From an uncultured Dehalococcoidia bacterium (GTDB lineage: Bacteria > Chloroflexota > Dehalococcoidia > Lucifugimonadales > CAJWER01), in the NCBI GenBank assembly GCA_964608025.1, contig CAZSLO010000023.1, positions 111,312-175,311 of the forward strand: 64,000 nt of DNA, written 5' to 3'. The notes under the pieces were generated by a model that saw only the letters and a list, made by a program, of their open reading frames with translations, had not been told where the DNA came from and searched no databases. This document shows positions 13,370 to 48,494 of the stretch, piece by piece (within the stretch, counting starts at the first letter, position 1; every line of letters begins with the position of its first letter). The translations under genes and the position numbers were made by a program.

Positions 13370-13735
13370 ATGATTGTGATTCGTAACTGGAGAGATGCGA
13401 CGCCGGTAGTGGCTCATGAGAGTGCCATTATCTGGAGACTCTTAGACGAGAAAGGAAAAGAGGGGGTGCCTCATGACGAAGCACCACTCCAAGGCGTACA
13501 GTCTATAACCTTGCACCGCATGCAGTCCGGAAAGCAGGGCGATTATCATTTACATGAGGATCGTGAACAGATCTATTATTTTACGGAAGGTATCGCGAAG
13601 ATGAAGATTGATGACGACATCTATGATGTGAAAGAGGGAGATGCCGTATATGTCCCGCCGATGGCACGGCATCAACTCATAAATGACAGTGATGAATGGG
13701 TCGCACATCTTATTATCTCCGCGTGGGTAAAATAA
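13370..13735 (+). CDS. Cupin-domain protein
   Basis: Cupin motif 1 (GDYHLHEDREQIYYFTEG) and motif 2 (GDAVYVPPMARHQLIN). Confidence 0.7.
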   Translation: MIVIRNWRDATPVVAHESAIIWRLLDEKGKEGVPHDEAPLQGVQSITLHRMQSGKQGDYHLHEDREQIYYFTEGIAKMKIDDDIYDVKEGDAVYVPPMARHQLINDSDEWVAHLIISAWVK

Positions 13736-13809
13736 ACAATTTTGAAATTCGAGCATGGCCGAGAGGATATTGCTGTAAATTAGCTTGATCGAGTAGATAG
13801 GGAATTCCT

Positions 13810-32017: not shown

Positions 32018-33339
32018 CGGTCTCCCCTGCTTTTAAACCGCATTCTTAACGGAGTTCCTTCGAAGCCATAGGCATTACGTATTGTGTTCTCAAGGTAGCG
32101 CTGATACGAGAAGTGTACCATGTCGGACTTGTTTACGTGGAACGTGAAGCTGGGGGGTTGGGTATTATCCTGAGTCACTCCATATATTTTCAAACGCCGT
32201 CTCCCTGTAGGTGGAGGATGATCGGCAATGGCGTTCAATATCGTTCGCCTTAGATCGTAACGCGGCAGTGTCATTCCCCAATGCTGGTGGGTTTTTGCCG
32301 CTGTGTCCAATAGTTCACCGATGCCGGTATTTTCAAGTGCTGAAATAAAGCAAATGGGTGCATGGTTTGCAAATTTGAATTGCTCACGTACCCTACGTAC
32401 TGCATCATCTTTACTAAGGTCGAGATCTTGGGACCGATCCCATTTATTTATAGCTAATACAATCCCGCGATAGGCTTCTAATACATAACCAGCGATGTGT
32501 GTGTCCTGGGTTGTGGCTAGTTCTGTGGCGTCCATGACCAACACTGCGATTTCAGCACGGTCAATTGCCCTGATAGACCGTAAGGCGCTGAATTGTTCTA
32601 TCCCACGCTCTATCTTGCCTCGTTTACGAATGCCAGCTGTATCGATCAGGAGGATTGTCCTCTCATCCACGGTTACCAGGGAATCTAGCGCGTCGCGGGT
32701 AGTACCGGGTATATCACTTACTATGGCCCGATTTTCCCCCAGTATTGAATTGAGGAGCATAGATTTGCCGACGTTGGCTCTACCCACAATGGCCATCTTG
32801 AAATCTGTCTCGGGGTCCGGTATTGCATCTGTTTTGGGAAGGTGCTTTAGCACTTGTTCCATCAGATCTTCGATACCCTGGTTGTGATATGCACTTATTG
32901 GAATGGGTTCTCCAAGACCTAATTTGTGAAACTCTCCCACTGCTGTCTCTCGCAATTCGTTATCCGCCTTGTTGATGGCAACTACAACCTGTTTCTTAGA
33001 AAGACGTAGGATTTGGGCAACATCCTCATCTGGTGCCGTAAGTCCAGTCACCACATCGGCAAGCATAATGACAACATCCGATCCTTCAATAGCGTGATCA
33101 ATTTGGTCACGTATATTAGTCCAAAGCTCTGTATTTGGAAATTCGTCTAGGCCACCGGTATCTACCAAGGTAATTAATTGCTCGGACCAAGCTACATCGG
33201 CTATCACACGGTCTCTGGTTGTCCCAGGTATATCGGATACAATCGCAGGACGGTCTTCAGTTAATCTGTTAAAAAGCGTCGATTTGCCAACATTAGGTCG
33301 GCCTACTATAGAAACAATCGGCTTCAGGACTGTTGACAT
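32014..33339 (-). CDS. der: Ribosome-associated GTPase Der/EngA
   Basis: Two tandem GTPase domains (GRPNVGKST and GRANVGKSM) plus a KH-like C-terminus. Confidence 0.95.
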   Translation of the reverse strand: MSTVLKPIVSIVGRPNVGKSTLFNRLTEDRPAIVSDIPGTTRDRVIADVAWSEQLITLVDTGGLDEFPNTELWTNIRDQIDHAIEGSDVVIMLADVVTGLTAPDEDVAQILRLSKKQVVVAINKADNELRETAVGEFHKLGLGEPIPISAYHNQGIEDLMEQVLKHLPKTDAIPDPETDFKMAIVGRANVGKSMLLNSILGENRAIVSDIPGTTRDALDSLVTVDERTILLIDTAGIRKRGKIERGIEQFSALRSIRAIDRAEIAVLVMDATELATTQDTHIAGYVLEAYRGIVLAINKWDRSQDLDLSKDDAVRRVREQFKFANHAPICFISALENTGIGELLDTAAKTHQHWGMTLPRYDLRRTILNAIADHPPPTGRRRLKIYGVTQDNTQPPSFTFHVNKSDMVHFSYQRYLENTIRNAYGFEGTPLRMRFKSRGDR

Positions 33340-33422
33340 GAATACCTCGTTTGGGCCATACGAAACCAGGCTACTATGGGCTTAGTTGAGCCAGCGACGG
33401 ATCATGTGTGTGCACTTGGATA

Positions 33423-34337
33423 TTATCGAGTGAAAAGATTTGTCATTATCGCATTTTGAGCATGGAGGCGGTTTTCTGCTTGATCGAAAACTACTGATTG
33501 TGGATGATCTAGCATTCCTGCGGAGATTTCCTCTCCTTCATGTGCAGGCATATCGTGCATAAAAATCGCCGTTGGCTTAGCTAGACTCATAAGGGCAGGA
33601 TTGACCTGATAATTTTTAAAGGCACTCTGCCTCTCTTTAGATTCTGAATCTTGTCCCATGCTGACCCAAACGTCAGTGTAAATAACGTCGGCATCCAGAG
33701 CTGCAATTTCTGGAGATTGAACCCAGGTAACATCGGTTTTATTACGACTCGCTCGGATCTGCGCTTCTTGCCACGTAATATCTTCCATTTGATACGCTGG
33801 AGGAGAAGCTATTACAAATTCTGTACCGACAGATGCACAAGCAAGAGCTAGGCTGCCGGCTACATTGTTACCATCTCCGATGTAAGCTATTCGTTGTCCT
33901 GTGAACGATCCATTGTGTTCAGATATCGTGAGCAGGTCTGCCATTGCCTGGCACGGATGTTCAAGGTCTGACAATGCATTGATCACGGGAATCGACGTGT
34001 TCTCAGCTAGTAAAATCAGATTCTTGTGGGAAAAAACACGGGCAACTATTCCGTCTACCCATCGATCTAGTACACGAGCAACATCCGGTACTGGCTCCCT
34101 TTGTCCTAGGCCTACCTCGGATCCGCCTAGAAAGAAGCACTCACCTCCCAATCGCCGGATTCCAACCTCGAAGCTCGCCCTAGTTCTAAGAGATGGTTTC
34201 TCAAAAAGCAGGGCGATGATTTTGCCTTCCAAGGGGCGTTGTAGCTTACCTTGTTTAATACTCTTTGTCTTATCGATCATAAGGGCAATCGCCTCAGGGT
34301 CTAGGTCTGCGATGGATAGGAAGTCTTTTCCTTTCAC
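33423..34337 (-). CDS. argF: Ornithine carbamoyltransferase-like transcarbamylase (variant active-site motifs)
   Basis: HPCQ and DVWVSMG motifs are present. SLRTR replaces STRTR, and HDMP replaces HCLP. Confidence 0.75.
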   Translation of the reverse strand: MKGKDFLSIADLDPEAIALMIDKTKSIKQGKLQRPLEGKIIALLFEKPSLRTRASFEVGIRRLGGECFFLGGSEVGLGQREPVPDVARVLDRWVDGIVARVFSHKNLILLAENTSIPVINALSDLEHPCQAMADLLTISEHNGSFTGQRIAYIGDGNNVAGSLALACASVGTEFVIASPPAYQMEDITWQEAQIRASRNKTDVTWVQSPEIAALDADVIYTDVWVSMGQDSESKERQSAFKNYQVNPALMSLAKPTAIFMHDMPAHEGEEISAGMLDHPQSVVFDQAENRLHAQNAIMTNLFTR

Positions 34338-34405
34338 GATAACACCTCTAGGGTATGATCATACCTGACGAAAATGGGATGCGGCAACGCAATCATTGCC
34401 ACATC

Positions 34406-37400
34406 TTATCCTAACTCTGTTTTAAGCATACCGCGGTTAATGCGGGAAGATTTTCTTATAAAGATGAGTGTTGTTACTATGAACATTGTGATAAGTGCTG
34501 AATATATGGGAATCATGAGGCTCCAATTGGTGATCAGAACGAAAGGAGGCAAAGCTTCTTGGCCAGTCTCAGTAAAAGAAACTAAAGATACTACAAGCTG
34601 GCTCATTTGAAGCCCGGTGAGTGTCCCTATTGCCATGCCAGTAACGACTATAGTGAAATGTTCAAAACACACGAGCTTGATCAGTTGTCGTTCCGATAGG
34701 CCCATAGAAAGGAGTATTCCTAGTTGTGCATGAATCTTCTTTGCGGATGCAACGAGAAATGATGTATATCCCAATCCCACCGTCGAAATAACAGTAGCTA
34801 TTACAAGCACTACCATAGAATTCCAGCCAGCCGTAGTCATGGGATTTAGACGAGACGACGCTAAAAGAGATTCCCGGTGCTGCACGTTTCCCCAGTACTT
34901 AAACACCGAATCGAGTGCTGTTTTCATTGCCTGTTGTGCAGCAGGTGCTTCTTTAATAAAAAGTTCATTAGGAACACTTATAGGTGTGTGTCCCATGATG
35001 TTAAGGTGGCCGAGGAGGCTGTTAAGATCTGCAAGAATAAATCTTCCTCCTACTGAGTCCATAGTCGGGAAGTAGTCGATGATTTCTCTGATAACCATCG
35101 GGACAAATCGATTGGATATGTTGGCTAGGATAATATCTCCCTTACTGGAAAAAGTTTCCTTAGCGAAAGAGTTACTGACCACTACTGGAACAGGGCCGCC
35201 AGTTGGACTTTGATAGAATCCGCGAATACCGTAGTGGTTTTCTTTGGTAAAAGTGAAAACTCCTGACCGACGGCCCGATTGAGATTCCTGTCTTGTTGTG
35301 GTGATTCGCTCTGGCGATAGCTGGGCTGTCACTATGGGAAACCACCTGAGTTGTCCTTCAAAATCCTCGAGCAACATGATATTGTCAGAGGTGGCAGCTT
35401 TGGTATGTATACTGTCAATCAGTAATTGCCCTGGTGTTTTGTCCGTACCTGTGCCAGGTTCAGAAATTTGTATAGAAACCAAATGAATAGGACCTTTCAT
35501 GGACGGTGGGAGATCTCCTGATAAAAGAGTCCACTCGTCGTTGCTCGGTGTCCCCATCGGGATAGATTTTATAGATCCAAGGCCATCCTCGATCAAAGCC
35601 CATACGACCAACCCTGGAATAAATTCTTGGATTTTAGCCCAAAGCCCAATAGTTGAAGCGGAATCTGGAATAACAACGCGTTCTATCTGTCGGTGGGATG
35701 ACAAGATAGTCATCAGGTTGTTGAATTGGATTCTTGAAAAATCTTGCCGATACCATGACATACTCGAGAAATCCCGTGATTCTATAGCTAGCAGTTGAAT
35801 CGAGACACCTGCAGCACGTGACTCTTCCCTTAAGGCTAATGTAGTTTTTTGAACACCTGGGAGTTCGTCATATCGGGATTTCATAGGATATATTCCTCTC
35901 CCAGCTGTTGACGGGAGGTCTGTGACACGAATATCCGCGCCAACCTGGTAATGGATACGGTCTTCCTGATTTCGTTCAAGCGTAGCTCCAATCGTTGTTG
36001 CTAATACGCCGATGCCGGTAGCTAGAATTATCATGAGGATTAGACCGGTGTATTGGAATGGATTTCGAGCCATTTGGCGTAATCCCATCCAGAGCCATAT
36101 AGGAGTAAGGTTCATCAAGAAAGGTATCAGTCTTGCAACTAGTTGGGCTGGCACTAAACCTATGAGGCTTAGAGCTGGGAGATAAAATAAATCTTTGGAA
36201 TCTAAGGGTTCTGCAAGCAAGATTCCGTATACAAGACCAGATTGGATCAGGAGTCCAACGATAAGATAATGCTTACGCCTAGTCTTGATTGTACCCAAGT
36301 AAATTGCCCAAACAGATATTACTAGTGCGAGAGGGATGGCCCATTCGACCCGATCGCCTATTAGCCCGGTTATTAATAGAGTCGCTGAGGCGCTGGATAG
36401 AATCAATGTGGCCAAAAGATTTAGGAGGAAGAGAGATTCGCCACTAACGAACTGAACCAGTATTGGGAATAGCCTCATGAAAATAAGTGTGATTGCCAGT
36501 AAAAAGAGGACAGGTGTGATTAGTAGTGATTCATTAAGATCAAAACCATTTAACAGGCTACGGGATACAAGGTGGCCTTGGGAGTGGAGTTCCCATAGGA
36601 TAACTCCCCCGATAGAGATTAGGGCAATATCTAGGTAGTAGCGCTGAAAAAACAGCGTATTAACAGGCCGGCCAACCTGTAATTTATAAGCTCGCAGCCC
36701 GCTCCCAGTACTCCCAGTATTCAATAAACCTAAGCAGGCTGTAACAGTGATTGTAAGTATGCCGCTGACAATCGCTGCGATTAATGCCATTGGACTTAGA
36801 TCTGCAGATAGGAAAGTCCCGTTGGTCATGTCGCTGAGATAAGGAAGAAAACCGCTTAGCATTACAAGGGCCATCGCCCCAAAAGGTGCCACAATGATCA
36901 CCAAAAGTGTCATGAGTATAGGTTCCCAGATGTTAAGGCTTATTATGTGAAGAGGACCGAGCCCTCTTGTAATTAGCAAGGCAGTATCTGCTAGGCGGTT
37001 TTGTGCCAAGTACGAAGCAATTATCCCTAGATAGATCAATATCGTCATAAACACAATCGCCAGCATCAGTAACATCGGAATTTTTCCGAAGAAAGTCCTA
37101 TGTTGAAATTTGCGAAAAGTGCTATCCAGGGCAGTAGAAACTTCTGACCCTGGGAGGAGATTTACTAACTGTTTCTCGAACTGATCTAGCTGGGTTCTAG
37201 CCTCACTAGTAGTCCATCTATTGAACCCGTCCTTATTTACCCGAATTATCCATATCGAGTTGATCAAGCTTGTAGGATAGGCAGTGCCTAGACCATCCAC
37301 CATGCCTTTCTGCGTGATGAAAAGAGGCACTGAGGGGAACATTTCTCTGTCTGGGCCGTCTACAGTTGGACCGAGGGTGTTGAAGGGTTCAGGATCTAAG

Positions 37401-38068
37401 AACAAGCTTGGATGTAGAGCCCAGTAGTCTTCCTTAGGATCTGTAGGTGTAATGATACCAACGATATCAACAGATATCGTTGTTGGGTCGTTCGTATCCG
37501 ATGATGTTAATATTGTGTCGCCGATCCGTAGGTCAAACAATCTTGCAGTATTGGCGCTAATAATGGCTTCGATCTTAGTTAGATTAGCTTCACCTCTAAT
37601 GTGGCCGGTGGCCATTCTTCCGCTCTCGAATGTTACATGCTGGGTGATTTCGGAAAGGGTTCTGTAATAGGCGTTAAAGGAATGGGGTGTCAATTCGCTA
37701 AAAAAACCTGGAGGCCTTCTTGGTAGTTCGGCGAGGTACGTCTCCGTCATTAGATAGCGCTGATGAGTGGTATATATAGGAGCAATCTGGTCGCTTATGG
37801 CTTGGCTTAGTTTTTGTTCGACCTTTTGGAGTCGTTCCCGTGTTGGATGAAGATTGAACACCAAAACATTGATATTGGATTCTTGTTTGGTTAATGTTTC
37901 CAAAAGTAGGTTCAACCCGAGTCGTTCTAGGGAAATTGGGTAAATAGGGGCGGCTGCAGCGAGGGTTGTTGCTATCAATATCCCTATAAACACAGCGCTC
38001 ATAAGAGCCCAGCTTGATTTTATGCGCTTGACTACGAGTGTTCTGAACGTCATTGATGAATTGCTCAA
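34406..38068 (-). CDS. Very large (1220 aa) FtsX/MacB-type ABC-permease-like membrane protein with big extracytoplasmic domains
   Basis: N-terminal TM then a large soluble region then a TM cluster, with the pattern repeated. C-terminal 4-TM FtsX-like block. No ATPase gene adjacent. Confidence 0.65.
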   Translation of the reverse strand: MSNSSMTFRTLVVKRIKSSWALMSAVFIGILIATTLAAAAPIYPISLERLGLNLLLETLTKQESNINVLVFNLHPTRERLQKVEQKLSQAISDQIAPIYTTHQRYLMTETYLAELPRRPPGFFSELTPHSFNAYYRTLSEITQHVTFESGRMATGHIRGEANLTKIEAIISANTARLFDLRIGDTILTSSDTNDPTTISVDIVGIITPTDPKEDYWALHPSLFLDPEPFNTLGPTVDGPDREMFPSVPLFITQKGMVDGLGTAYPTSLINSIWIIRVNKDGFNRWTTSEARTQLDQFEKQLVNLLPGSEVSTALDSTFRKFQHRTFFGKIPMLLMLAIVFMTILIYLGIIASYLAQNRLADTALLITRGLGPLHIISLNIWEPILMTLLVIIVAPFGAMALVMLSGFLPYLSDMTNGTFLSADLSPMALIAAIVSGILTITVTACLGLLNTGSTGSGLRAYKLQVGRPVNTLFFQRYYLDIALISIGGVILWELHSQGHLVSRSLLNGFDLNESLLITPVLFLLAITLIFMRLFPILVQFVSGESLFLLNLLATLILSSASATLLITGLIGDRVEWAIPLALVISVWAIYLGTIKTRRKHYLIVGLLIQSGLVYGILLAEPLDSKDLFYLPALSLIGLVPAQLVARLIPFLMNLTPIWLWMGLRQMARNPFQYTGLILMIILATGIGVLATTIGATLERNQEDRIHYQVGADIRVTDLPSTAGRGIYPMKSRYDELPGVQKTTLALREESRAAGVSIQLLAIESRDFSSMSWYRQDFSRIQFNNLMTILSSHRQIERVVIPDSASTIGLWAKIQEFIPGLVVWALIEDGLGSIKSIPMGTPSNDEWTLLSGDLPPSMKGPIHLVSIQISEPGTGTDKTPGQLLIDSIHTKAATSDNIMLLEDFEGQLRWFPIVTAQLSPERITTTRQESQSGRRSGVFTFTKENHYGIRGFYQSPTGGPVPVVVSNSFAKETFSSKGDIILANISNRFVPMVIREIIDYFPTMDSVGGRFILADLNSLLGHLNIMGHTPISVPNELFIKEAPAAQQAMKTALDSVFKYWGNVQHRESLLASSRLNPMTTAGWNSMVVLVIATVISTVGLGYTSFLVASAKKIHAQLGILLSMGLSERQLIKLVCFEHFTIVVTGMAIGTLTGLQMSQLVVSLVSFTETGQEALPPFVLITNWSLMIPIYSALITMFIVTTLIFIRKSSRINRGMLKTELG

Positions 38069-38202
38069 ACTAGATCGATGATATCTGCAATGAATTTGAT
38101 AGATATTTTCTTTTATGGAGCTCTTTTAATCGATTGAATTCAAGTTTCTGTACGGATACCTTGACAATTGATAGGCAAAAATTCAAGGTGGTTTTTTGGG
38201 AT

Positions 38203-40536
38203 CTATGCTGGTAGGAGTTTGAGATTGGACTTCATCTCTTGAAGAACTGACTCGCGATTCCATGGAATGGCCACTCCCTCTCCCCGTATCCATAGAGGTA
38301 GTAGATCATCGTAATGAGGGGACATTGGGTTTCCCGATTGTCCTCCGGGAATTGAGAAGCGCGAGTTTTCCCATTTCCCGATATCGATCACCATGCGCAT
38401 AGATGGAATGGATAGAGGATTCCCGGTGGGGTTGTCTAATGGGGCGGCTGCTTGTGAAATAGTATTAGCGTCACCTCCCAATGGAAAGGGACCACGATTG
38501 AATATATGGCTGAACATCTTGCGTTCGCCAAATGGATGCCGAAGTATTAGCTTTCTGACATCACCCCACGCCCAGTTTTTGTGATCATTGCCATAGCGGA
38601 TTCGAAGTATTCTGATAGTTTCCACTAAGGCTTTTTGTATTACGGTATTCCAGCCCTCATCGAACCAGCCAGTGGGCTGTTCTTTCAATAAACGTATTGT
38701 ATGTCCGGTACGTCTAGCTACAAGTATTGTATAAGGTTTTGCTATGTTCGAAGATTTTCCCATGGACCAGTCAGCCGAGTTAGGGGCTTTGGTTTTCGCA
38801 ATTGTTCTAGTTATCTCGGCCATAAACAATTCAAACACTGTTGCGGGTGCTGAATCGACCCCGATTTGTCCATCCCAAGTGGCTAGAAGATCAAGGGCCT
38901 CCCGTGCGTATTGCTGATCAACAGGAGTGGTCAATAAAATCTCCCGTATTTCTTCCCAGGGCATAGATTTGACGTCCTGAAGAAATGTCATGGTGTTCTG
39001 GATATCCCAGTCGTCGTGTTCACCAAGTGTTTCGAATATACGAGAGATGCGGTAACCATCTAGCCAATCAATGCCTAAATAGGGTCCGTCCCCTTCCTTG
39101 GTGGGACTGTTATTAGCTGTAGCGACAATGCCGGAGGGTGAGTTATTCAAGTATGGCATTTGATCGTGAGGCACGTGGCTATGCTCCCAATCTGCGTCTT
39201 TTTCCCAACCAGGTTTGGGTATAGTGCCCCAGCCACTCTTTCGAACTGGAACCGTCCCTACTAATTGCCAGCCGATGGATCCTGATGTGTCGGCATATAC
39301 CATGTTTAGAGACGAAAGTGGCCAGTCATCACATAGGCTTTGGAATTCGCTAAACGAGCGTGCTTTATGAATTGTTGCTATTCCTTTGATAGGCATGGAA
39401 TCAAGCCAAGTTGCCTTGAGGGAGAAGGCGGTGATGCCCGCGTTTTTGTGGGACGATGTTCCGATAATCGGGCCTCGTGGTGTGATCAACACACGTTCTA
39501 CAAGATCTTTACGACCTCTGATTCGAATAACTTCATCTTTTATTTCACAGGGGATGAAGTTGTCATCTTGACGTACGCTTGTACCGTCGGGACTCAGTTG
39601 TTCTATGAATAAATCGGTTGTATCTACCATGCCTGCGGTTACTCCCCATCCAGCAGTTCCATTATGTCCAGCAGGAAACCCGGGGCCACCAACGAAAGTG
39701 GCTCCTGCTACAGACCATTTGGGCGTAGTTATGTGGGCTAAGTACCAATGTGCTGGCAGGGTAGGTCGTAGATGGGGATCGTTTGACAGCAATGGCCTTC
39801 CCGTGGATGTTTTTTCGGGGGCAAGGGCCCAATTGTTCGAGCCCCCGACGTATCCAACGGCTTCCCGGAGCGCGGAGATATCATCCACAAGCCGATCCAT
39901 GATTGGGCCTTGTGGAGAGCCAGCTGGCTTGGATACAGGGTGCCATTCTGCATAGGCAGGATCAAGCGCTTTCACTGCATCTGGTCCATCTTCTACCAAG
40001 ATCTGGTACCGAGCTATCTCTATATCCCAATTTGACGCTAGGACGAATGCCTGTAGTTTAGCTGATGCAATGACATCTGTGATCGTATAGGGTGTTGGTC
40101 TTGCACGTAGAATCGCAAATTCATGTGGGACTCGTGGAATGCCAAGTTGCACCCCATCGGATATTCCTTTGGCAAACGAAGTTGTATTGGCATGCATCTC
40201 CGGGTCTAGGGCATTTATCTGGTCCTCAGCATTGCGAGCGAAACCTATCTGGCGCGAGAATCGATCTATTTTGATGCCAGCAGGGCCCAAGAGCTCGCTA
40301 AGTGAACCTCTGGCTATGCGGAGCATTACTTCGAGCTGAAACGCCCTGTCTTGTCCTTGGCAGAAACCTATTCCATACCACGCGTCTCGATCATCCTGGG
40401 CTTTAATATGTGGTATGCCGTTATGGTCTCGGATGATAGTTATAGGGTTGGTAAGATACGGGACATTGATCACACCAGATGTGATAGGAAGCCGTTTGCC
40501 CAAAAGGCCTCGTAACAGCCAGCGTGGCATTTTCAT
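38203..40536 (-). CDS. Penicillin/AHL-acylase family Ntn hydrolase (peptidase S45)
   Basis: Alpha-subunit start pattern IIRDHNGIPHIKA...QDRAFQLE. Autoprocessing and nucleophile site GGSNNWA. 777 aa. Confidence 0.85.
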   Translation of the reverse strand: MKMPRWLLRGLLGKRLPITSGVINVPYLTNPITIIRDHNGIPHIKAQDDRDAWYGIGFCQGQDRAFQLEVMLRIARGSLSELLGPAGIKIDRFSRQIGFARNAEDQINALDPEMHANTTSFAKGISDGVQLGIPRVPHEFAILRARPTPYTITDVIASAKLQAFVLASNWDIEIARYQILVEDGPDAVKALDPAYAEWHPVSKPAGSPQGPIMDRLVDDISALREAVGYVGGSNNWALAPEKTSTGRPLLSNDPHLRPTLPAHWYLAHITTPKWSVAGATFVGGPGFPAGHNGTAGWGVTAGMVDTTDLFIEQLSPDGTSVRQDDNFIPCEIKDEVIRIRGRKDLVERVLITPRGPIIGTSSHKNAGITAFSLKATWLDSMPIKGIATIHKARSFSEFQSLCDDWPLSSLNMVYADTSGSIGWQLVGTVPVRKSGWGTIPKPGWEKDADWEHSHVPHDQMPYLNNSPSGIVATANNSPTKEGDGPYLGIDWLDGYRISRIFETLGEHDDWDIQNTMTFLQDVKSMPWEEIREILLTTPVDQQYAREALDLLATWDGQIGVDSAPATVFELFMAEITRTIAKTKAPNSADWSMGKSSNIAKPYTILVARRTGHTIRLLKEQPTGWFDEGWNTVIQKALVETIRILRIRYGNDHKNWAWGDVRKLILRHPFGERKMFSHIFNRGPFPLGGDANTISQAAAPLDNPTGNPLSIPSMRMVIDIGKWENSRFSIPGGQSGNPMSPHYDDLLPLWIRGEGVAIPWNRESVLQEMKSNLKLLPA

Positions 40537-41246
40537 GTTTTTGTTGCTGAAGCAATTGCCATACTGTCTACATCAACTAGAGAAGACTGCTTGATCTTAA
40601 AGCCGAAATGTTGTCTGAAGTTCTTAATCAAACTTGATGTGACCTTATCAAGCTTAACTGGACCGGTTTCAGCAGTTACAGAAGTTATTCTGCACTCCGG
40701 CATTCCACATGGAACTATATGGTCAAAATAATTTAGATCAGGTGCAACATTCAATGCGAATCCGTGTGTAGTAACTCCACGGCTGACTCTTACACCTATT
40801 GCGGCGATCTTTGCCCCACCTGTCCAGACTCCTGTGGGATGCCCTTCACTTTCTGCCGGAATTCCAAACTCTGCGAGCGTATTGATTAAAATCTGCTCAA
40901 GCCCGCGTATATACAACATCGGACCAATACCTAGTTGTTTCAAGTTAATTATGGGATATGCGACTATCTGTCCTGGTCCGTGGTAGGTAACCTGCCCTCC
41001 ACGGCCCGTCTGGTGGATTTCAACGCCTAGTTCGATAAGTTTCTTTGGAGACAGGTGGATATCTTCTGAATTACCACGACGGCCAATCGTATAAATATGT
41101 GGGTGATTCAACAGGAGAAGTACGGCAGGGAGTTCCCCATTGGCAACTCTTGAGTGCAAACGCTCTTGGATTTCTAGGGCTGTAACGTACTCTGTCAGTC
41201 CTAATCGTATGACAGGAACCATGTAAGAGCTCTCATAGGGACACAA
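40533..41246 (-). CDS. lipB: Octanoyl-[ACP]:protein N-octanoyltransferase LipB
   Basis: RGGQVTYHGPGQ motif. Catalytic-region pattern and KIAAIGVRV. Stop overlaps the acylase ATG (ATGA). Confidence 0.9.
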   Translation of the reverse strand: MCPYESSYMVPVIRLGLTEYVTALEIQERLHSRVANGELPAVLLLLNHPHIYTIGRRGNSEDIHLSPKKLIELGVEIHQTGRGGQVTYHGPGQIVAYPIINLKQLGIGPMLYIRGLEQILINTLAEFGIPAESEGHPTGVWTGGAKIAAIGVRVSRGVTTHGFALNVAPDLNYFDHIVPCGMPECRITSVTAETGPVKLDKVTSSLIKNFRQHFGFKIKQSSLVDVDSMAIASATKT

Positions 41247-41249
41247 CTG

Positions 41250-42488
41250 TTACACCTCGAGGTTTGGATCTATTGCCTCTAGCCTTCGTTTCACGTCCCC
41301 AATGAATGCGCCTGCTTCGGCACCGTCAAGGATCCTGTGGTCGAATGTTAGACAGAGATTCATCATTGATCGGATGGTAATGGTGTTATCGATCACAACG
41401 GGTCTATTGACGATAGATTCCGTGTTTAGGATAGCTGCTTCCGGAGAGTTTATTATTGCCTTGCCTATTATTGAGCCTAGGGCACCAGTGTTGTTTATCG
41501 TGAATGTACCACCTTGTACATCTTTTAGTGAGAGCTTGCCGGAACGGGCGCGATTTGCAAGGTCTTGGATAGATTTTGCCAAGTCAGATACATCAAGCCG
41601 ATCGGCGTCGTGTACTACGGGTACCACAAGGCCGCCTGGGGCAGCTACGGCGACTCCTATGTTTACTCGTTTTTTTAGAATGATCGTGTTGTCATTCCAG
41701 GAAGCGTTTACCATCTGGTGTTCCTTCAGGCAGTCCGCGACTATTTTGACGATAAAAGCGAGGTAGGTTAAGTTAGCGTTCTCTCTTTTGAAGAATGCTG
41801 TTTTTGTCTGTTCTCTAAGCTGTACCAAGTTCGTTACATCGGCCTCTACTAGGGTCCAGGCTTCTGGAATTGTTCTAGTGCTGTTGGCCATATTTTCAGC
41901 GATCATTCTACGTATAGGAGTGAGTTGGACTAGTTCTTCGTTTTCATTCAGGTTGCCGGGCTGTTGTTCTTGTGAATCGATGAAGGCTTGGACATCGTTA
42001 CGGGTGACTCTTCCGTTAATACCTGTACCTATTACCATGGAGAGATCTACGTTTTGCTGATCCGCAAGTCGTAGCACCGCAGGGGAATATCGACTCGTTT
42101 GACTTGGTGGTCTACCGGGGTTGGTAGTAATTGGTCCCCCAGATCCTGTAGGCCCAACAGGTGCCACATCTTTCATCAATGAGCCGACACGGTCCATAGG
42201 AGGAGAGTTTTTGGATGTGGGTTTAGGTGAAGCCGTATTATCGATAGCATCTTCATCTGGGGCCGACATTTCTGCAATCGCCGTACCCATAGGTACTGTA
42301 GAGCCCTCTTCAACCAATATATTCGTTATTATCCCTGTTGCTGGAGCGGGCACTTCCATATTCACTTTGTCAGTAATCACTTCAACGATTGGTTCGTACT
42401 TCTCGACCGGGTCTCCAACATGTTTTAGCCATCGTCCAATGATTCCTTCAGTGACTGACTCTCCCACGTGTGGCAGATCGATTTTCAT
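41250..42488 (-). CDS. 2-oxoacid dehydrogenase E2 (dihydrolipoamide acyltransferase)
   Basis: Lipoyl domain with VITDKV lipoyl-Lys, peripheral subunit-binding domain, catalytic DHRILDG motif. Confidence 0.9.
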   Translation of the reverse strand: MKIDLPHVGESVTEGIIGRWLKHVGDPVEKYEPIVEVITDKVNMEVPAPATGIITNILVEEGSTVPMGTAIAEMSAPDEDAIDNTASPKPTSKNSPPMDRVGSLMKDVAPVGPTGSGGPITTNPGRPPSQTSRYSPAVLRLADQQNVDLSMVIGTGINGRVTRNDVQAFIDSQEQQPGNLNENEELVQLTPIRRMIAENMANSTRTIPEAWTLVEADVTNLVQLREQTKTAFFKRENANLTYLAFIVKIVADCLKEHQMVNASWNDNTIILKKRVNIGVAVAAPGGLVVPVVHDADRLDVSDLAKSIQDLANRARSGKLSLKDVQGGTFTINNTGALGSIIGKAIINSPEAAILNTESIVNRPVVIDNTITIRSMMNLCLTFDHRILDGAEAGAFIGDVKRRLEAIDPNLEV

Positions 42489-42497
42489 GGATGTCCC

Positions 42498-43442
42498 TCA
42501 GTACTGTATCAATTTACGCATGGCATTCCCGATGCGCTCCGTGTCCGGCAAGAACATTGCCTCTAGATCTGGGCTGAAAGGCATTGCTGGGATCTCTGGT
42601 CCAGCGATGCGCATAATTGGACCGTCGAGATACTCGAAGGCATCCTCAGATATAATAGCTGATACTTCACTGCCGATTCCGAGAGCCTTAGTATCTTCAT
42701 GGACTATAAGTACTTTGCCGGTTTTGCGTGCAGTTGACAGGATTGCTTCGGAGTCTAGTGGCCTTAATGTTCGAAGATCCAGAACTTCAACGCTTATTCC
42801 TTCATCGATGAGATCTTGGGCGGCCTCTATACAGAGATGTAACATGAGTCCGTAAGAGATTACACTTATGTCAGTGCCCTCCACCTTAACATCGGCATTC
42901 CCAATTGGAAGGGTATATTCATTTTCTGGTACATCACCCCGGACTAGGCGATAGGTCCGCTTGTGTTCTAGGAAAATCACAGGATCATCATCCCGGATAG
43001 CACTCTTAAGCAGTCCCTTTGTATCGTAAGGTGTGGCTGGTGCAACAACTTTCAGTCCCGGTGTATGTGAAAAATAGGCTTCTGGGCTTTGGGAATGGTA
43101 GAGTCCGCCGCGGACGCCTCCGCCGTAAGGAGCCCTTAGGACCATTGGCACGCTGAGAGATCCTGCTGTTCCATATCGTACCCTTGCTGCCTCACCTATA
43201 ATTTGGTTGAATGTTGGCCAGATAAAGTCTGCGAATTCTATTTCCGCGATGGGGCGCATACCGTTCATTGCTGATCCTACAGCTATACCGGCAATTGATG
43301 ATTCGGCTAGAGGGGTGTCTATCACACGCTCTTCGCCGAATTGTTCCAGGAACCCATCGGTAGCAAGGAACACCCCGCCCCTGGAACCTATATCCTCTCC
43401 CATTACGAAGACGCTATCATCTCTCATCATTTCTTCATACAT
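42498..43442 (-). CDS. 2-oxoacid dehydrogenase E1 beta subunit (N-terminus probably extends to an ATC codon at 43481)
   Basis: Transketolase-like pyrimidine-binding and C-terminal domains. Homology continues 13 codons upstream of the first ATG. Confidence 0.9.
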   Translation of the reverse strand: MYEEMMRDDSVFVMGEDIGSRGGVFLATDGFLEQFGEERVIDTPLAESSIAGIAVGSAMNGMRPIAEIEFADFIWPTFNQIIGEAARVRYGTAGSLSVPMVLRAPYGGGVRGGLYHSQSPEAYFSHTPGLKVVAPATPYDTKGLLKSAIRDDDPVIFLEHKRTYRLVRGDVPENEYTLPIGNADVKVEGTDISVISYGLMLHLCIEAAQDLIDEGISVEVLDLRTLRPLDSEAILSTARKTGKVLIVHEDTKALGIGSEVSAIISEDAFEYLDGPIMRIAGPEIPAMPFSPDLEAMFLPDTERIGNAMRKLIQY

Positions 43443-43471
43443 GGCATCTCGGACGGCGTCGATAACTGATA

Positions 43472-44512
43472 TTACGGCGATGGTTTCTCTCCCATTGTAG
43501 AAGCGTACACGTGTTTGTAGAAACTGGATGTGTCTGGATGCCGGGCGGCCTCTACTTTTTCTGTTGCTTCATTGATAGATTTCTTTGTATCAGATACAAA
43601 GGTCTCCTCGATCTGGTCATCTACTATTCCCGATGCAAATAGGTGTTCTTTTAACATGCTTAGAGGATCGTGTTTCCTCGCGTTTTCTATATCCTCACTG
43701 GGGCGGTATCGGGTATCGTCGTCATCACTTGTATGTGGAAGATAACGTTCGACCATTGCTTCTATCAATGTAGGTCCACCTCCGCCACGCGCCCTTTTAG
43801 AAGCCTCGGACGTAGCTTCATACACGGCTGTGATATCGGTGCCATCGACTACAATTCCTGGCATGCCATAGCCTTCGGCCCTGCTAGCGATGCTTTCAAT
43901 AGCCATTTGCTTGGAGAGTGGCACAGAGATTGCATACTTGTTGTTCTCACAAAAGAATATAACAGGAAGCTTGTGAATAGCCGCGAAGTTCATTCCTTCA
44001 TGGCAATCTCCAACGCTCGCAGCTCCGTCTCCAAAATACACGATTGTTACATTGTCTCCTCCCCGCATTTTTGACGCGAGGGAATTTCCAACAGCTTGTG
44101 GAATCTGAGTGCCAACTACATTAGATAAATTCACAATCTTTAGATCCTGATCTGCACCGTGGGTGGGAAACTGCCTTGCGTCACTCAAAGGCTCCCCTGT
44201 CTTTGCAAGGAATCCTGACATAATTTGAATTGGGGTTAGGCCAAGGCTTAACAATACGGCCAAGTCTCGGTAATAAATAAAGAAGTGGTCGTGGCCCTTA
44301 CGAAGTGCGGCCACACTTCCTATTTGTGCAGCCTCGTGACCTTGCGCTGATGCAACAATAGCGGCTTTACCTTGACGATTCAGCAGCCACACACGTTCGT
44401 CCAATGCTCTACAAAGGACCATCTGTCGATACATTTCCAGAAGTTGTTCGTCAGTTGGACCGTCATTGGGCCTACTTAACCCATCTTTTGTTAACGGAGA
44501 ATCTTTTTTCAT
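43472..44512 (-). CDS. 2-oxoacid dehydrogenase E1 alpha subunit (ThDP-dependent)
   Basis: ThDP motif GDGA...(N). YRxxxHS-like region (RYLPHTSDDD). Confidence 0.9.
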   Translation of the reverse strand: MKKDSPLTKDGLSRPNDGPTDEQLLEMYRQMVLCRALDERVWLLNRQGKAAIVASAQGHEAAQIGSVAALRKGHDHFFIYYRDLAVLLSLGLTPIQIMSGFLAKTGEPLSDARQFPTHGADQDLKIVNLSNVVGTQIPQAVGNSLASKMRGGDNVTIVYFGDGAASVGDCHEGMNFAAIHKLPVIFFCENNKYAISVPLSKQMAIESIASRAEGYGMPGIVVDGTDITAVYEATSEASKRARGGGGPTLIEAMVERYLPHTSDDDDTRYRPSEDIENARKHDPLSMLKEHLFASGIVDDQIEETFVSDTKKSINEATEKVEAARHPDTSSFYKHVYASTMGEKPSP

Positions 44513-44710
44513 AGGTAGTTAATATATCTTGAAAGAATGCTTAGTGCGATGAATCAGAATTATATTGGCGGCTCGATTGGACAGTCAAAGAAATGAAAAA
44601 CTCGAGAAGGATTCATTAATTAGATTTGGATAGGATGCCTGTATCCCAATATTTTCTTGGTGTTCTACTTTACATGTACTCGGAGGTTGAGTTACTTACC
44701 GGAGGTTACT

Positions 44711-45610
44711 CTAGAGCCGAGATAAATATTGTTCTACAACATCAATTCCTACTAGTCCACTATAAGCTTTTTGAAGTCTATCTGTGACAGGTCCGGGTGA
44801 AGCGCCGTTTCCAACTACTGTTCCATTTATGGTCGAAACTTGGCAGATACAGAAACTGGTAGATGTGACAAATGCTTCATCCGCTGTGTAGGCATCGAAC
44901 AGATCGATATCCGTTTGATGGACATCTATCCCGATTTCTTCTGCCAGATCAATCACAGTGGAGCGGCTGATGCCTGCCAGAATATATTGCTCTTTAGGAG
45001 TAAATATGGCACCGTCCTTGACTAGGAAAATATTACTGCCTTGCCCTTCACAGAGATTTCCATTGATGTCGAGCATTATTGCCCATGCTTCGGGGTTCTG
45101 GGCTTTAATCTCTAGTTCTGCTTGTATCATGTTGATGTAGTTATGCATCTTCGCTCTTGGGCTCATAGATTGAGGAGGGGTGCGCCTTATTGAAGGCGTT
45201 GCGATCGGCAGCCCGTCTCGATAGAACCGTGCACGCTCTTCAAAGGGTAGTGGATAACATTCGACGATTACCGTGGGATTAGACCCGGAGTCTCCTCGCA
45301 TTCCGCGGGTGAATCTCTGTGTTATCCAGTAGTCTTCGTTTTCAGCTAGTAATGGCAGATTGGCTTCAAATATTTTCGTTGTTAATTCTGAAAGTTCTAT
45401 TTTTGTCATGCCAGGATCTATTCGCATGTACTTAAGCGAGTTATAAAGCCTATCTAGATGTTCCTCCAGCCTGAAAATACGATGCCCGAAGCTGCGCGTA
45501 GTGTCGAATACTGCATCACCATAAAGGAAGCCTGTGTCTCCGATTGAAATCTTGGCCTCATTTTCAGGTACTACCTGACCATTGACGTACGCTACCCTTT
45601 CTTGTGTCAT
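44711..45610 (-). CDS. Class IV (BCAT/DAAT-fold) aminotransferase
   Basis: FLYGDAVFDT N-terminal motif. Catalytic Lys context PRAKMHNY. EGQGSNIF motif. Confidence 0.85.
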   Translation of the reverse strand: MTQERVAYVNGQVVPENEAKISIGDTGFLYGDAVFDTTRSFGHRIFRLEEHLDRLYNSLKYMRIDPGMTKIELSELTTKIFEANLPLLAENEDYWITQRFTRGMRGDSGSNPTVIVECYPLPFEERARFYRDGLPIATPSIRRTPPQSMSPRAKMHNYINMIQAELEIKAQNPEAWAIMLDINGNLCEGQGSNIFLVKDGAIFTPKEQYILAGISRSTVIDLAEEIGIDVHQTDIDLFDAYTADEAFVTSTSFCICQVSTINGTVVGNGASPGPVTDRLQKAYSGLVGIDVVEQYLSRL

Positions 45611-45637
45611 TGTAACTTCCTTTGACTAGGCTATCTA

Positions 45638-46300
45638 TTAATTCAACGGCTTGAAACGGTAACCAACCTGCCATACCGTTTCGATAAAAGTATGATCAGC
45701 GTCCTCTATCTTACTCCGAAGTCTCCTTATATGTACGTCAACGGTTCGTGTCCCTCCAAGGTATTCGTATCCCCAAATCTGGTTTAGTAGCGTATCTCTG
45801 GAGAATACCCTTCCTGGATTACTTGCCATTAACAAGAGCAATTCGTATTCCTTATATCTTAGTGAAATGCGCTTCCCGTTCACTGTAACCTCGAAGTTCG
45901 CCGTGTTTATCAGCAAATCTCCGATACATATGGAGTTCTGGTCTTTTACTGCCTTTAGTTTACCGACCAACCGAGATGCCCGTAGCTCCAATTCTTCTGT
46001 CCGGGGAGGACCTATTATGAAATCGTCCAACTCTATTGAATCATACAGGTGATCTAATTTTGCATTTGGTAAAAAGATTGCAATTGCAGGGATCGACAGA
46101 TCCCTGCAATGTTGTACGCATTGCCGTAGATCTTGGATCGACATGGCGGATGTGTCGATTAAGGCAATGTCAGGGAACTTGTGAGCAGAGATCGCGTTTA
46201 ACGAAATAACGGAGGATACCAAGACGCAATCTATCCCACGATTCTTCAGATGAGTTACGTATTCAAGTTCATTTTGAAAAGGCAATGGACCGATTGTCAT
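45638..46300 (-). CDS. OmpR/PhoB-family winged-helix regulator with degenerate (atypical) receiver domain
   Basis: C-terminal trans_reg_C (LRYKEYELLLLM...VDVHIRRLRSKI...VGYRF). The receiver keeps D in IALID but lacks the N-terminal acidic pair, the conserved T/S and the conserved K. Confidence 0.8.
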   Translation of the reverse strand: MTIGPLPFQNELEYVTHLKNRGIDCVLVSSVISLNAISAHKFPDIALIDTSAMSIQDLRQCVQHCRDLSIPAIAIFLPNAKLDHLYDSIELDDFIIGPPRTEELELRASRLVGKLKAVKDQNSICIGDLLINTANFEVTVNGKRISLRYKEYELLLLMASNPGRVFSRDTLLNQIWGYEYLGGTRTVDVHIRRLRSKIEDADHTFIETVWQVGYRFKPLN

Positions 46301-46354
46301 CAGGGTTCCTGTGGGATTTTATCCAAGCCCCAAGATTTTACTAGGGGTTTTGTT

Positions 46355-47224
46355 CTATTCGGTTCTGGGTTCATCTGAATCAACAGGAACTCCTACAGAA
46401 TTCCCCCACTCAGTCCAAGATCCATCGTAGTTTCGTACTCTTGGGTAGCCCAGCAGGTATTTGAGCACGAACCATGAATAAGATGCACGGACACCTAATC
46501 TACAGTAGGGAACAATCTCGTCGGAGGATGACACGTCTTGTTCCTCGTATAGTTTGCGAAGTTCCTCGACTGGACGGAACGAACCGTCCAGCGAAACCGC
46601 ATCATCCCATGCTATATGTATAGCTCCAGGGATCCGGCCATTCCGGTATATTCCCGACTGATGTGTTTCTGGCGCTGAGGGTAATTCGCCGGTGAACTCT
46701 TCAATTGTCCGGGTGTCGAGCAGTTTGAAGCCTTGCTTGCCTAGATTTGTGATGATATAGTCCTGCATCGCTCGAATCGATCGATCCGGTGTAGATACTT
46801 GATAATGTGATGGTACCCGGTTTAGTGAATCTGTAGACAATTCCCGACCTTCTTCCAACCATTTTCGTCGGCCTCCATCCATGATTCGAACGTCTTGGTG
46901 GCGGTAGATCTTTAATATCCAAAATGCCCATGTTGCCGATCGATTATTTCCGTCACCGTAGAGGACAATTGTTGTCTCTTTACTAATGCCAGCCATTCTT
47001 AAAAGTGATTCTATTTGTTCAATTTTTGGGATATCCCGCCTTACTTGATCTTCAAGATCTACATGAAGACTCCAGCCTACTGAATTTGGCACATGGCCAG
47101 TGTCATATCCTTCAATAAGATTGGTGTTGATCTCTACTATGACAACGGATGGATCATTAAGATGTGAGGCAACCCAATCAGTTGATACGATGACTTCGGG
47201 ATATGCGTATGGTGGTGACATCAT
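46355..47224 (-). CDS. Two-domain rhodanese sulfurtransferase (thiosulfate/3-mercaptopyruvate type)
   Basis: Active-site loop CRLGVRAS in the C-terminal rhodanese domain. Start set at the MMSPPY Met to avoid overlapping the upstream gene. Confidence 0.85.
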   Translation of the reverse strand: MMSPPYAYPEVIVSTDWVASHLNDPSVVIVEINTNLIEGYDTGHVPNSVGWSLHVDLEDQVRRDIPKIEQIESLLRMAGISKETTIVLYGDGNNRSATWAFWILKIYRHQDVRIMDGGRRKWLEEGRELSTDSLNRVPSHYQVSTPDRSIRAMQDYIITNLGKQGFKLLDTRTIEEFTGELPSAPETHQSGIYRNGRIPGAIHIAWDDAVSLDGSFRPVEELRKLYEEQDVSSSDEIVPYCRLGVRASYSWFVLKYLLGYPRVRNYDGSWTEWGNSVGVPVDSDEPRTE

Positions 47225-47244
47225 TTCTCCTGACCGGACGTCAA

Positions 47245-48351
47245 CTATATAGACCATCTCTCTACGGCATAAGGATCTAATTCTAACCCTAGACCTGGTC
47301 GGTCTGGGAATGGAGACCACATTCCGTTCCGTTGCTGCGGAATTTCCTTATACCACTCTGTTTCGCACTCATGTATATGGCCTAGGTATTCGACGACCTT
47401 GAGATTCGGTGTTGCGCATGCCAGATGCAAATGAACAGACTGATAAGCATGAGGCGCTACCATCAAGTTGAAGGCGTGGGCTAGATGCGCAACTTTCATC
47501 CATTCGGTTATCCCTCCAACTCTGCCGACATCGGGCTGAGCAATATCCACAGCACCTCCGGCGATTAAATCTCGGAATTTATATTTGCCAGAATCAAGCT
47601 CTCCTGCAGCTATAGGAATCGAGGTGTTTCTCCTCACTTCAGCCATGCCTACAACGTCATCGGTTAGGACAGGCTCCTCGATCCAGCCGACCTGAAACTG
47701 TTCGAATTCCTTAGCCATGTAAATAGCCTGTTTGGGATAGTAGCCGTAGTTAGCGTCGATATAGAGTGAGACGTTGTCACCCAACGCTTTACGAACTGCC
47801 TCGACTCGCGCCAAGTCTTCCCTTTCCGACATGCCGAAGTCCTTGGCGACCTTCATTTTCACACGTGGAATGCCATTTTCTACATATCCACTCATTTCGG
47901 ATAAGAGGCCTTCTTCGCTGAGGTTAGTCCATCCCCCACTTCCATATATTGGAATAGAATCCGTATAGGCGCCTAGGAGTTTATATAGTGGGAGACCGAC
48001 TGCCTTCGCCTTTAGATCCCAAAGACCTACATCTACAGCAGATAGTGCAGAAAAACCAATACCCTTATTCCCATAGCTTCGGAGCCTCCAATACATGTCG
48101 TTCCAAAGTCTTTCTATATCGAATGGATCCTGGTCTATCAGTAGTTCCTTGAAGGATGATTCAATGATTTCCTGGACCCCCGGGGATAGTGCTCCAATGC
48201 CAAGCCCTTCTATTCCTTCATCTGTGACGATGTGTACAAAGAGCTGGCTGCGCCCCGAGCTTTTGGGGATACTTAATGTGGAGTCCTGAACTGCTGGGAT
48301 GTGAGGGTAGCGCAGTGATGTAGTTGTAATGTCGATGATCTTCATCGACAC
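47245..48351 (-). CDS. Enolase-superfamily enzyme (mandelate racemase / muconate lactonizing family)
   Basis: KxK motif (VKMKV). Metal ligands in DANYGY, EEP and a downstream acidic position. 368 aa. Confidence 0.85.
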   Translation of the reverse strand: MSMKIIDITTTSLRYPHIPAVQDSTLSIPKSSGRSQLFVHIVTDEGIEGLGIGALSPGVQEIIESSFKELLIDQDPFDIERLWNDMYWRLRSYGNKGIGFSALSAVDVGLWDLKAKAVGLPLYKLLGAYTDSIPIYGSGGWTNLSEEGLLSEMSGYVENGIPRVKMKVAKDFGMSEREDLARVEAVRKALGDNVSLYIDANYGYYPKQAIYMAKEFEQFQVGWIEEPVLTDDVVGMAEVRRNTSIPIAAGELDSGKYKFRDLIAGGAVDIAQPDVGRVGGITEWMKVAHLAHAFNLMVAPHAYQSVHLHLACATPNLKVVEYLGHIHECETEWYKEIPQQRNGMWSPFPDRPGLGLELDPYAVERWSI

Positions 48352-48494
48352 CTCCGGATTTAATGGAAGACTTGATCGGATCCAGTGTAGATTCGACTAG
48401 CTGGGTAGTCAATCGCTATCATACACCGGATGAATCGTGGACTTGACATCCACGCCATCATAACTAGAGAGCCCTACGACAGTTCAGGAGGCAA

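Follow-up and report, generated by a model that had tools for sequence, protein, structure and literature searches.

A putative intracellular S45 acylase encoded next to lipB in one Chloroflexota lineage

I analyzed a 64,000-nucleotide (nt) stretch of DNA from an uncultured Dehalococcoidia bacterium (hereafter referred to as the window), and focused on a minus-strand gene encoding a protein of the penicillin acylase family S45, whose members are N-terminal nucleophile (Ntn) hydrolases. This gene directly follows lipB, the octanoyltransferase gene, at the end of a set of 2-oxoacid dehydrogenase genes. I consider it fairly probable that its product processes itself and works inside the cell, possibly at the membrane, as an acylase that cleaves a hydrophobic N-acyl amide, and that it is encoded as the next cistron after lipB in an operon of the branched-chain 2-oxoacid dehydrogenase (BCKDH) or pyruvate dehydrogenase type, in one deep Chloroflexota lineage. 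Action on octanoyl- or lipoyl-lysine, which a preliminary description of this DNA had proposed, is chemically plausible but unsupported.

By analogy with the family, the precursor would cut itself between Gly232 and Ser233, and Ser233 would then attack the amide carbonyl of the substrate. His255, Asn475 and Arg496 would be the conserved residues of the family, with Asn475 aligning to the oxyanion-hole Asn. The enzyme would remove a hydrophobic acyl group in the cytoplasm, and the genes for E1alpha, E1beta, E2, LipB and the acylase would be transcribed together, probably through to the gene of an FtsX-like permease.

The acylase and its family

The acylase matches the S45 profile PF01804 with 595 bits (cutoff 21.3, E 3e-178) over residues 31–764, covering positions 1–673 of the 675 in the profile, which bears out its earlier assignment as an Ntn hydrolase and shows the protein to be intact. 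The GGSNNWA processing and nucleophile site described previously is also present: residues 230–237 read VGGSNNWA, with Ser233 the predicted nucleophile (Ser1 of the beta chain), and the GG/SNNWA motif aligns with beta-chain residue 1 of both 4HSR, a class III cephalosporin acylase structure, and penicillin G acylase (PGA). S233, N234 and W236 are invariant in an alignment of 30 diverse homologues, as are H255, N475 and R496. The last three were placed by alignment to the N176 class III acylase and PGA; I take H255 and R496 to be the equivalents of His23beta and Arg263beta in PGA numbering, and N475 that of the oxyanion-hole Asn. The window motifs VTAGM and GFPAGHNG resemble STAGF and LVFGHNG of PGA, and the alignments agree with this.

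An AlphaFold2 model of the acylase has a mean predicted local distance difference test (pLDDT) of 80.6 and a predicted TM-score (pTM) of 0.86. Searched with Foldseek, it matches the alpha-beta-beta-alpha Ntn-hydrolase fold, with TM-scores of 0.82–0.84 to D-succinylase (7EA4/7EBY; E 3e-42 to 7EA4) and a target-normalised TM-score of 0.88 to 4HSR_B. Because S233, H255, N475 and R496 are invariant and the model is confident, the acylase looks active, the cleavage itself being predicted.

At E <= 1e-20, a database search returned over 1400 homologues. Identity to the window acylase is 51–65% for the best 120 of these, nearly all of which are of similar length (∼770–790 amino acids); any names they bear go no further than “penicillin acylase family protein” or “penicillin amidase”, and they come from metagenome-assembled genomes of Chloroflexota, Bipolaricaulia, Fidelibacterota, Nitrospirota and Pseudomonadota. 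The acylase thus belongs to a large uncharacterised clade of signal-less proteins (∼775 amino acids) found in several phyla. This clade is related to the class III cephalosporin acylases and to D-succinylase, which are its closest solved structures, and the next matches are the penicillin G acylases, class I cephalosporin acylases, MacQ and PvdQ, at 16–22% identity. The tree used to group homologues is a p-distance tree built by the unweighted pair group method with arithmetic mean, good for grouping and not reliable as a phylogeny. Against the NCBIfam equivalog for PvdQ the acylase scores 36 bits, for a cutoff of 950. Horizontal acquisition of the acylase gene was considered, and rejected in view of the uniform GC content and the parallel identity matrices of LipB and the acylase. 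The fifth-best match to the N-terminus of the beta chain is the recently deposited PDB entry 35sz (chains A and C, “Penicillin acylase family protein”; E 1.9e-19), which has an Arg at beta24, like the glutaryl and succinyl enzymes.

N-terminus and cellular location

The N-terminal consensus MNIPRLLFRLLLGRRLPxTSG is common to all 120 homologues, across phyla, with R15, P17 and G21 invariant. The homologues begin at the same Met as the window acylase, whose open reading frame (ORF) cannot be extended, as no in-frame start codon lies between this Met and the preceding stop. In the AlphaFold2 model, residues 3–12 form a low-confidence helix (pLDDT 50–66), the confident fold starts at the strand spanning residues 20–23, and only ∼13 residues, interrupted by Arg, lie ahead of the folded domain. 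This conserved N-terminal helix is amphipathic. For a Sec signal there is no unbroken hydrophobic core, the hydrophobic runs being only 3–4 residues long and split by Arg, and for a Tat signal there is no h-region, since the folded domain already includes the residues past the RR pair. With ∼13 residues outside the fold, which is too few for an export signal, the N-terminus is predicted not to be a signal peptide; so strong a conservation is also atypical of signal peptides, which vary. The absence of a signal peptide that had been noted for the window protein is therefore true of the whole clade.

I also counted, N-terminal to the RDxxGIPHI motif, the longest stretch with neither charged nor strongly polar residues. 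It is mostly 4–10 residues in the window clade, versus 18–21 in homologues of 31–33% identity, where a membrane-anchor-like segment precedes the homologous motif ARRPLPxxxG; homologues of 26–29% identity have classical N-terminal anchors. The anchored homologues come from loci L047–L069 (for example L047 at ∼10001) and L071–L087. Over the full range of 26–33% identity their anchors measure ∼20 residues; at 31–33% identity the segment has ∼21, and the ARRPLPxxxG directly after it is homologous to GRRLPxTSG of the window clade. Because the anchors of distant homologues precede the homologous motif at the same position, the window clade looks like an anchor-loss derivative, and its N-terminus like the vestige of an ancestral anchor. 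In one locus (L037, from ∼2399 on), GTLRLP is inserted three times in perfect tandem right after RLPITQG of the acylase N-terminus, which may stem from a short in-frame duplication or be an artefact of assembly.

There is precedent for such an N-terminus among the cephalosporin acylases. The alpha chain of 4HSR aligns over residues 9–221 to residues 9–227 of the acylase, giving the same N-terminal length, and shares the LPxxSG motif, and the cephalosporin C acylase of Bosea has been described as intracellular and without signal peptide (PMC13049609). Reviews count a signal peptide among the standard elements of the acylase family (PMC11241749, PMC5474475), and a “redundant bacterial signal peptide” is mentioned for an SE83-derived construct (PMC9144927). 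The literature searched yielded no explicit statement that the SE83 or N176 acylases lack a signal peptide, so the precedent of N176 type rests on the 4HSR alignment together with the Bosea statement. A signal-less intracellular S45 enzyme is nonetheless real for this clade. Since only ∼13 Arg-interrupted residues precede the fold, the window acylase most likely stays in the cytoplasm, where it perhaps lies against the inner face of the membrane via its short conserved helix.

Acyl pocket

Molecular dynamics of the N176 acylase identified R24beta, Y32beta, H57beta, H70beta, H178beta, N242beta and Y467beta as residues that stabilise cephalosporin C (PMC6712217). In the alignment, R24beta, which is also Arg in D-succinylase, corresponds to L256 of the window acylase, and Y32beta to W264, where D-succinylase has the Arg of an SLRY motif. 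H57beta and F58beta correspond to A289 and a one-residue deletion, and H70beta to A301. The carboxylate-binding residues of class III (R24beta, H57beta and H70beta) are thus not kept in the window acylase, and both L256 and W264 are invariant in the clade (30-sequence alignment).

I infer from these positions that the acyl pocket is hydrophobic, and nearer to that of the penicillin G and N-acyl homoserine lactone (AHL) acylases than to that of the succinyl- and glutaryl-specific nearest relatives. Where the closest solved relatives bind a carboxylate, the window clade has invariant Leu, Trp and Ala, so that the enzyme would probably remove a hydrophobic acyl group, either a medium-chain fatty acyl or an aryl group. 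It is chemically plausible that such a pocket admits octanoyl or lipoyl groups, and equally plausible that it admits AHLs, N-acyl amino acids or lipopeptides. Whether or not lipB is linked, the orthologues have the same invariant pocket residues, and with the same pocket their substrate is presumably the same. Succinyl or glutaryl specificity, which would point to an E2-linked desuccinylase, was considered because the closest relatives have it; it was rejected, since invariant hydrophobic residues stand where those relatives have Arg and His.

Pairing with lipB

I examined 12 long homologue contigs and 80 metagenome loci, annotated by tblastn with the window proteins. The preliminary description had made its proposal depend on lipB adjacency recurring in relatives, and lipB does lie upstream of the acylase gene, on the same strand, in 11 divergent loci (the window, L002–L004, L011, L012 and L089–L093), with eight of the 12 long-contig look-ups positive. 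The pairing is real, and also old, since both the acylases and the LipB proteins of these loci are only 51–75% identical to each other. In seven of the 11 the two genes overlap or nearly abut: the overlap is 4 nt in the window, L002, L003 and L091 and 1 nt in L011, and the genes are 1 nt apart in L092 and 12 nt apart in L089. The spacing is 148 nt in L004, and a gene or ∼1.2 kb is inserted in L090 (DAGK), L012 and L093 (DUF2652, on the opposite strand). Indirect support comes from five further acylases (P0025, P0027, P0031, P0039 and P0057): the longest contig of each has exactly the length of the longest contig of an E1beta homologue, two of these contigs being only 18 kb and 26 kb long. A chimeric query of LipB and the acylase found no protein spanning both, and none with PF21948 and PF01804 together. 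The literature searched held no S45 lipoamidase and no description of a lipB-acylase pairing, in keeping with the earlier remark that the pairing was undescribed.

Across the clade, the pairing is restricted. Thirty-five loci have at least 2.5 kb of upstream sequence, and 10 of these are lipB-positive (11 of 36 with L011), one is ambiguous and 24 are negative, with neither lipB nor E2 nearby. The negative loci include one from Nitrospirota (L006), Acidimicrobiia-type loci and two from Chloroflexota (L007 and L088) in which the context is SHMT-EamA-acylase-EamA; further contexts are FabF-Fmt, a restriction-modification methylase with SerA, an alpha-amylase, and a kinase with a WD40 protein. A single-protein contig search gave one locus, L001 (Acidimicrobiia, 45% identity), which has no lipB. 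The ambiguous locus is L005 (Fidelibacterota), whose E2-acylase adjacency was not counted as an independent case, as exactly 100 N separate the two genes, a possible scaffolding artefact. This locus (CP070656.1) has N runs in the E1beta region (∼4700–4900) and at 7681–7780, between E2 and the acylase.

The lipB-positive loci have more in common than this pair. All those that reach far enough show the order MR_MLE, Rhodanese, regulator, E1alpha, E1beta, E2, lipB, acylase, FtsX, OTC, Der, PlsY and GpsA, which continues on to PrmA, DnaJ and HrcA. This block is a vertically inherited stretch of chromosomal backbone, full of functionally unrelated housekeeping genes, within which E1/E2, FtsX and inserted genes come and go. 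The FtsX gene lies downstream of the acylase in the window, L002, L003, L004, L013, L089, L092 and L093, and L012 has an ORF resembling the N-terminus of FtsX. A search with a home-built hidden Markov model of FtsX found no general association, only the syntenic lineage and L016.

Interpretation of the pairing

Vertical inheritance of this stable block explains the pairing at least as well as a functional link does, and I favor the account given at the outset, of an intracellular acylase for a hydrophobic amide that sits next to lipB in one lineage. Several points weigh against it. The predicted pocket rests on alignment and not on a liganded structure, and the cytoplasmic location is predicted from sequence only. 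The pair survives the absence of E1 and E2 (L002, L003 and L089), the absence of FtsX (L090 and L091) and a changed downstream context (L011), and stop/start overlaps are kept at 51–64% protein identity to the window. Such persistence is what selection for co-expression would yield, lipB-acylase being the most persistent adjacency of the block, and lipB is the most recurrent neighbor in the clade by all-against-all clustering of flanking ORFs.

These same observations are what could recommend a functional link, in which the acylase would be a cytoplasmic octanoyl- or lipoyl-lysine amidohydrolase with the E2 lipoyl domain or mis-acylated proteins as its targets, co-expressed with LipB so as to proofread or regulate lipoylation. 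Coupling to lipB is kept in seven of 11 divergent loci and persists without E1/E2, lipB is the top recurrent neighbor, the predicted pocket would suit a C8 chain, the enzyme appears intracellular, and the literature offered no competing explanation of the pairing. I nevertheless regard this as unlikely: only one lineage has the adjacency, and unrelated genes there are syntenic over a long range, other genes come between lipB and the acylase in L012, L090 and L093, and 24 orthologue loci have identical pocket residues and no lipoylation gene nearby. The search for a LipB-acylase fusion with the chimeric query found none, the activity would create a futile cycle with LipB unless the enzyme edits, and the known lipoamidases (Lpa, CobB and SIRT4) have unrelated folds. 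LipB also cannot reuse freed lipoate or octanoate: as it uses octanoyl-acyl carrier protein, a salvaged free acid would be of no use to it, which tells against the lipoyl salvage that had been suggested. Of the proposed acyl-amide hydrolysis on octanoyl or lipoyl groups, one part stands, namely that a hydrophobic pocket would admit the group, but the step from adjacency to lipoamidase has no direct support. That the acylase is specifically a LipB-coupled protein deacylase (a lipoamidase or octanoyl-lysine editor removing wrong or surplus acyl groups from E2), or an amidotransferase that shuttles acyl groups via the acyl-enzyme, is in my judgment quite unlikely. The other genes around the acylase could instead hint at catabolism, with a hydrolase of N-acyl amino acids or similar compounds releasing branched-chain amino acids or fatty acids for the branched-chain aminotransferase (BCAT) and BCKDH of the operon. 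D-succinylase, the closest solved relative, does hydrolyse N-acyl amino acids, a class IV aminotransferase gene precedes E1alpha in the window and in L093, the E1beta homologues are named 2-oxoisovalerate dehydrogenase, and an intracellular site would fit. But BCAT is missing from the operon in L004, L090, L091 and L092, the acylase stays with lipB where E1/E2 are gone, and no uptake system for such substrates adjoins the acylase, which leaves this reading just as doubtful as that of the octanoyl- or lipoyl-lysine amidohydrolase.

On its other side the acylase adjoins the FtsX-like permease, and the two could process or export an acylated lipid or lipopeptide, loosely like PvdQ with PvdRT-OpmQ. 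FtsX is downstream in eight or nine loci with no terminator-like site between the genes, an unrelated MacB-type permease follows the 47%-identical orthologue of L016, and the conserved amphipathic helix could put the enzyme at the membrane. Yet FtsX is lost in L090, L091 and L011, lies beyond intervening genes in L002, L003 and L092, and is absent from nearly all other loci of the clade; no ATPase partner or biosynthetic genes adjoin, and the membrane would lie between the enzyme and an exported substrate. I judge such a partnership very unlikely. Finally, an ordinary exported AHL or beta-lactam acylase, in which the odd N-terminus still serves as an export signal, is highly improbable. Most characterised members of the family are exported (PMC5474475, PMC11241749), and distant homologues are anchored at the same N-terminal position, but the Arg-broken hydrophobic runs of 3–4 residues form no hydrophobic core, there is no Tat h-region, the conservation is too strong for a typical signal peptide, and the class III and Bosea acylases, which start with an N-terminus of the same type, stay inside the cell or are made without signal peptide.

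Locus organization

The ORFs and coordinates on the minus strand (Table 1) agree with the order E1alpha, E1beta, E2, lipB and acylase given in the preliminary description. The reported ATGA overlap was read directly in the sequence: the minus strand at the junction is aaaacATGAaaatg, in which the TGA of lipB and the ATG of the acylase overlap. From E1alpha to E1beta, E2, lipB and the acylase, successive gene spacings are 29, 9, 3 and −4 nt, and GC content is even across the operon genes (0.43–0.49).

Table 1. Features of the acylase locus, with positions in the window.
Feature	Position	Strand	Basis
OmpR-type winged-helix regulator	45638–46300	−	PF00486 only
Class IV (branched-chain) aminotransferase (BCAT)	44711–45610	−	PF01063, E 5e-43
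Best sigma-70-like promoter match, upstream of E1alpha	44559–44588	−	TTGACT-18-TATAAT, 11/12
E1 alpha subunit	43472–44512	−	PF00676, E 3e-88
E1 beta subunit	42498–43442	−	PF02779 and PF02780
E2 dihydrolipoyl acyltransferase	41250–42488	−	PF00364, PF02817, PF00198
lipB (octanoyltransferase)	40533–41246	−	PF21948, E 4e-45; NF010925
Overlap of lipB stop and acylase start (ATGA)	40533–40536	−	Sequence
Acylase coding sequence, 777 amino acids, S45/penicillin-amidase Ntn hydrolase	38203–40536	−	PF01804, E 3e-178
Short conserved N-terminus of the acylase, residues 1–21 (MKMPRWLLRGLLGKRLPITSG)	40474–40536	−	Homologue alignment, AlphaFold2
GGSNNWA autoprocessing/nucleophile site	39826–39846	−	Translation; residues 231–237
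FtsX-like (MacB/LolCE-type) permease, 1220 amino acids	34406–38068	−	PF02687
Terminator-like hairpin directly after the FtsX gene	34378–34405	−	12-bp stem, T-rich tail

The promoter- and terminator-like sites are consensus matches only. The hairpin after the FtsX gene (6 GC pairs in its stem) is the strongest terminator-like site, and none was found in the 134 nt between the acylase and FtsX; the permease gene is probably the last of the transcription unit. An Rfam scan of positions 33000–48500 (E <= 0.1) gave no match, and hence no riboswitch or leader was detected there.

LipB scores 183 bits against the NCBIfam equivalog NF010925 (cutoff 155), and keeps the catalytic residues Lys (K146, in KIAAIG) and Cys (C180, in PCG). 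The lipB ORF opens at a TTG (41246), and the ATG at 41222 is likely the true start. E2 has one lipoyl domain, with the lipoyl-lysine K41 in a TDKV motif, followed by E3-binding and catalytic domains. Homologues of E1beta carry the JGI name 2-oxoisovalerate dehydrogenase E1 beta, and one relative, at 77% identity, belongs to the SAR202 cluster. The regulator is kept upstream of the operon in L004, L089, L090, L091 and L092; in the window protein only the C-terminal OmpR DNA-binding domain was matched (residues 142–216), with no receiver-domain match in the first 140 residues. A rhodanese gene always adjoins the conserved regulator (the window, L004 and L089–L092).

Some further observations concern the neighbors of the acylase. 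The FtsX-like permease of the window has several FtsX-domain matches and no adjoining ABC ATPase gene, and L093 has two such permease genes in tandem. The FtsX association of L016 is the only one outside the syntenic lineage: at 12818–14095 (+), a 425-residue MacB-type permease (FtsX and MacB_PCD domains) unrelated to that of the window follows the 47%-identical acylase, together with a 230-residue ORF. In a high-GC, Acidimicrobiia-type branch (44–48% identity; L001 9782–12285, L021 11738–14257, L020, L040 and L058), two same-strand genes follow the acylase, encoding a ∼390-residue predicted lipoprotein and a homologue of the window ORF 49623–50981 (+), which itself matches the PF01425 amidase gene of L007; this pair is a second lineage-specific context of the acylase. 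Loci L013 and L044 come from a marine metagenome (ENA UPTF01), and the acylase, FtsX and OTCase of L013 are 97–100% identical to those of the window, so that the organism of the window, or one very closely related to it, is marine.

Significance

The pairing is a cheap experimental lead and not a discovery, and the acylase a new uncharacterised member of a known family. If the enzyme did act on octanoyl- or lipoyl-lysine, it would represent a new lipoamidase class and add a further level at which the 2-oxoacid dehydrogenases are controlled. Delipoylation would then have a third solution, structurally unrelated to Lpa and the sirtuins, and the class-III-like acylase clade a first physiological role. 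Otherwise, the analysis still documents a widespread clade of intracellular S45 enzymes, a short conserved N-terminal helix that looks like the vestige of an anchor, and a predicted hydrophobic pocket distinct from that of the succinyl- and glutaryl-specific relatives.

Comparison with known systems

The reaction proposed for the acylase is that of the lipoamidases (Lpa of Enterococcus faecalis, CobB and SIRT4), which remove lipoyl- or octanoyl-lysine groups from E2 and H proteins. These differ in nature: Lpa is an amidase-signature enzyme with a Ser-Ser-Lys triad, and CobB and SIRT4 are NAD-dependent deacylases. I know of no S45 enzyme that is a lipoamidase. The exported acylases (PvdQ, MacQ and the PGAs of E. 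coli and Kluyvera) share with the window acylase the family, the catalytic apparatus and, as predicted here, a hydrophobic acyl pocket, but they are only 16–21% identical to it and are periplasmic enzymes made with a cleavable Sec signal peptide.

D-succinylase of Cupriavidus sp. P4-10-C (7EA4/7EBY) is the best match over the full length, in both sequence (E 5e-69) and structure. It is 25% identical to the window acylase and longer (824 amino acids, with ∼16 more residues before the domain), and its Arg residues at beta24 and in SLRY are replaced by the invariant L256 and W264 of the window protein.

The signal-less, cephalosporin-acylase-like branch of S45 is not known to act on any particular physiological substrate, although members of it have been engineered industrially for decades. 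The class III acylases of this branch (Pseudomonas sp. N176 and SE83 AcyII; 4HSR/4HST) are only ∼26% identical to the window acylase, and the residues that hold their glutaryl or cephalosporin C side chain (R24beta, H57beta, F58beta and H70beta; PMC6712217) become Leu, Ala, a deletion and Ala, so that dicarboxylyl-amide specificity is not expected in the window enzyme. They nevertheless have the same S45 fold (beta-chain E 1e-56), the same GG/SNNWA processing site and the same alpha/beta architecture, and begin with the same short N-terminus, without hydrophobic signal and with the LPxxSG motif.

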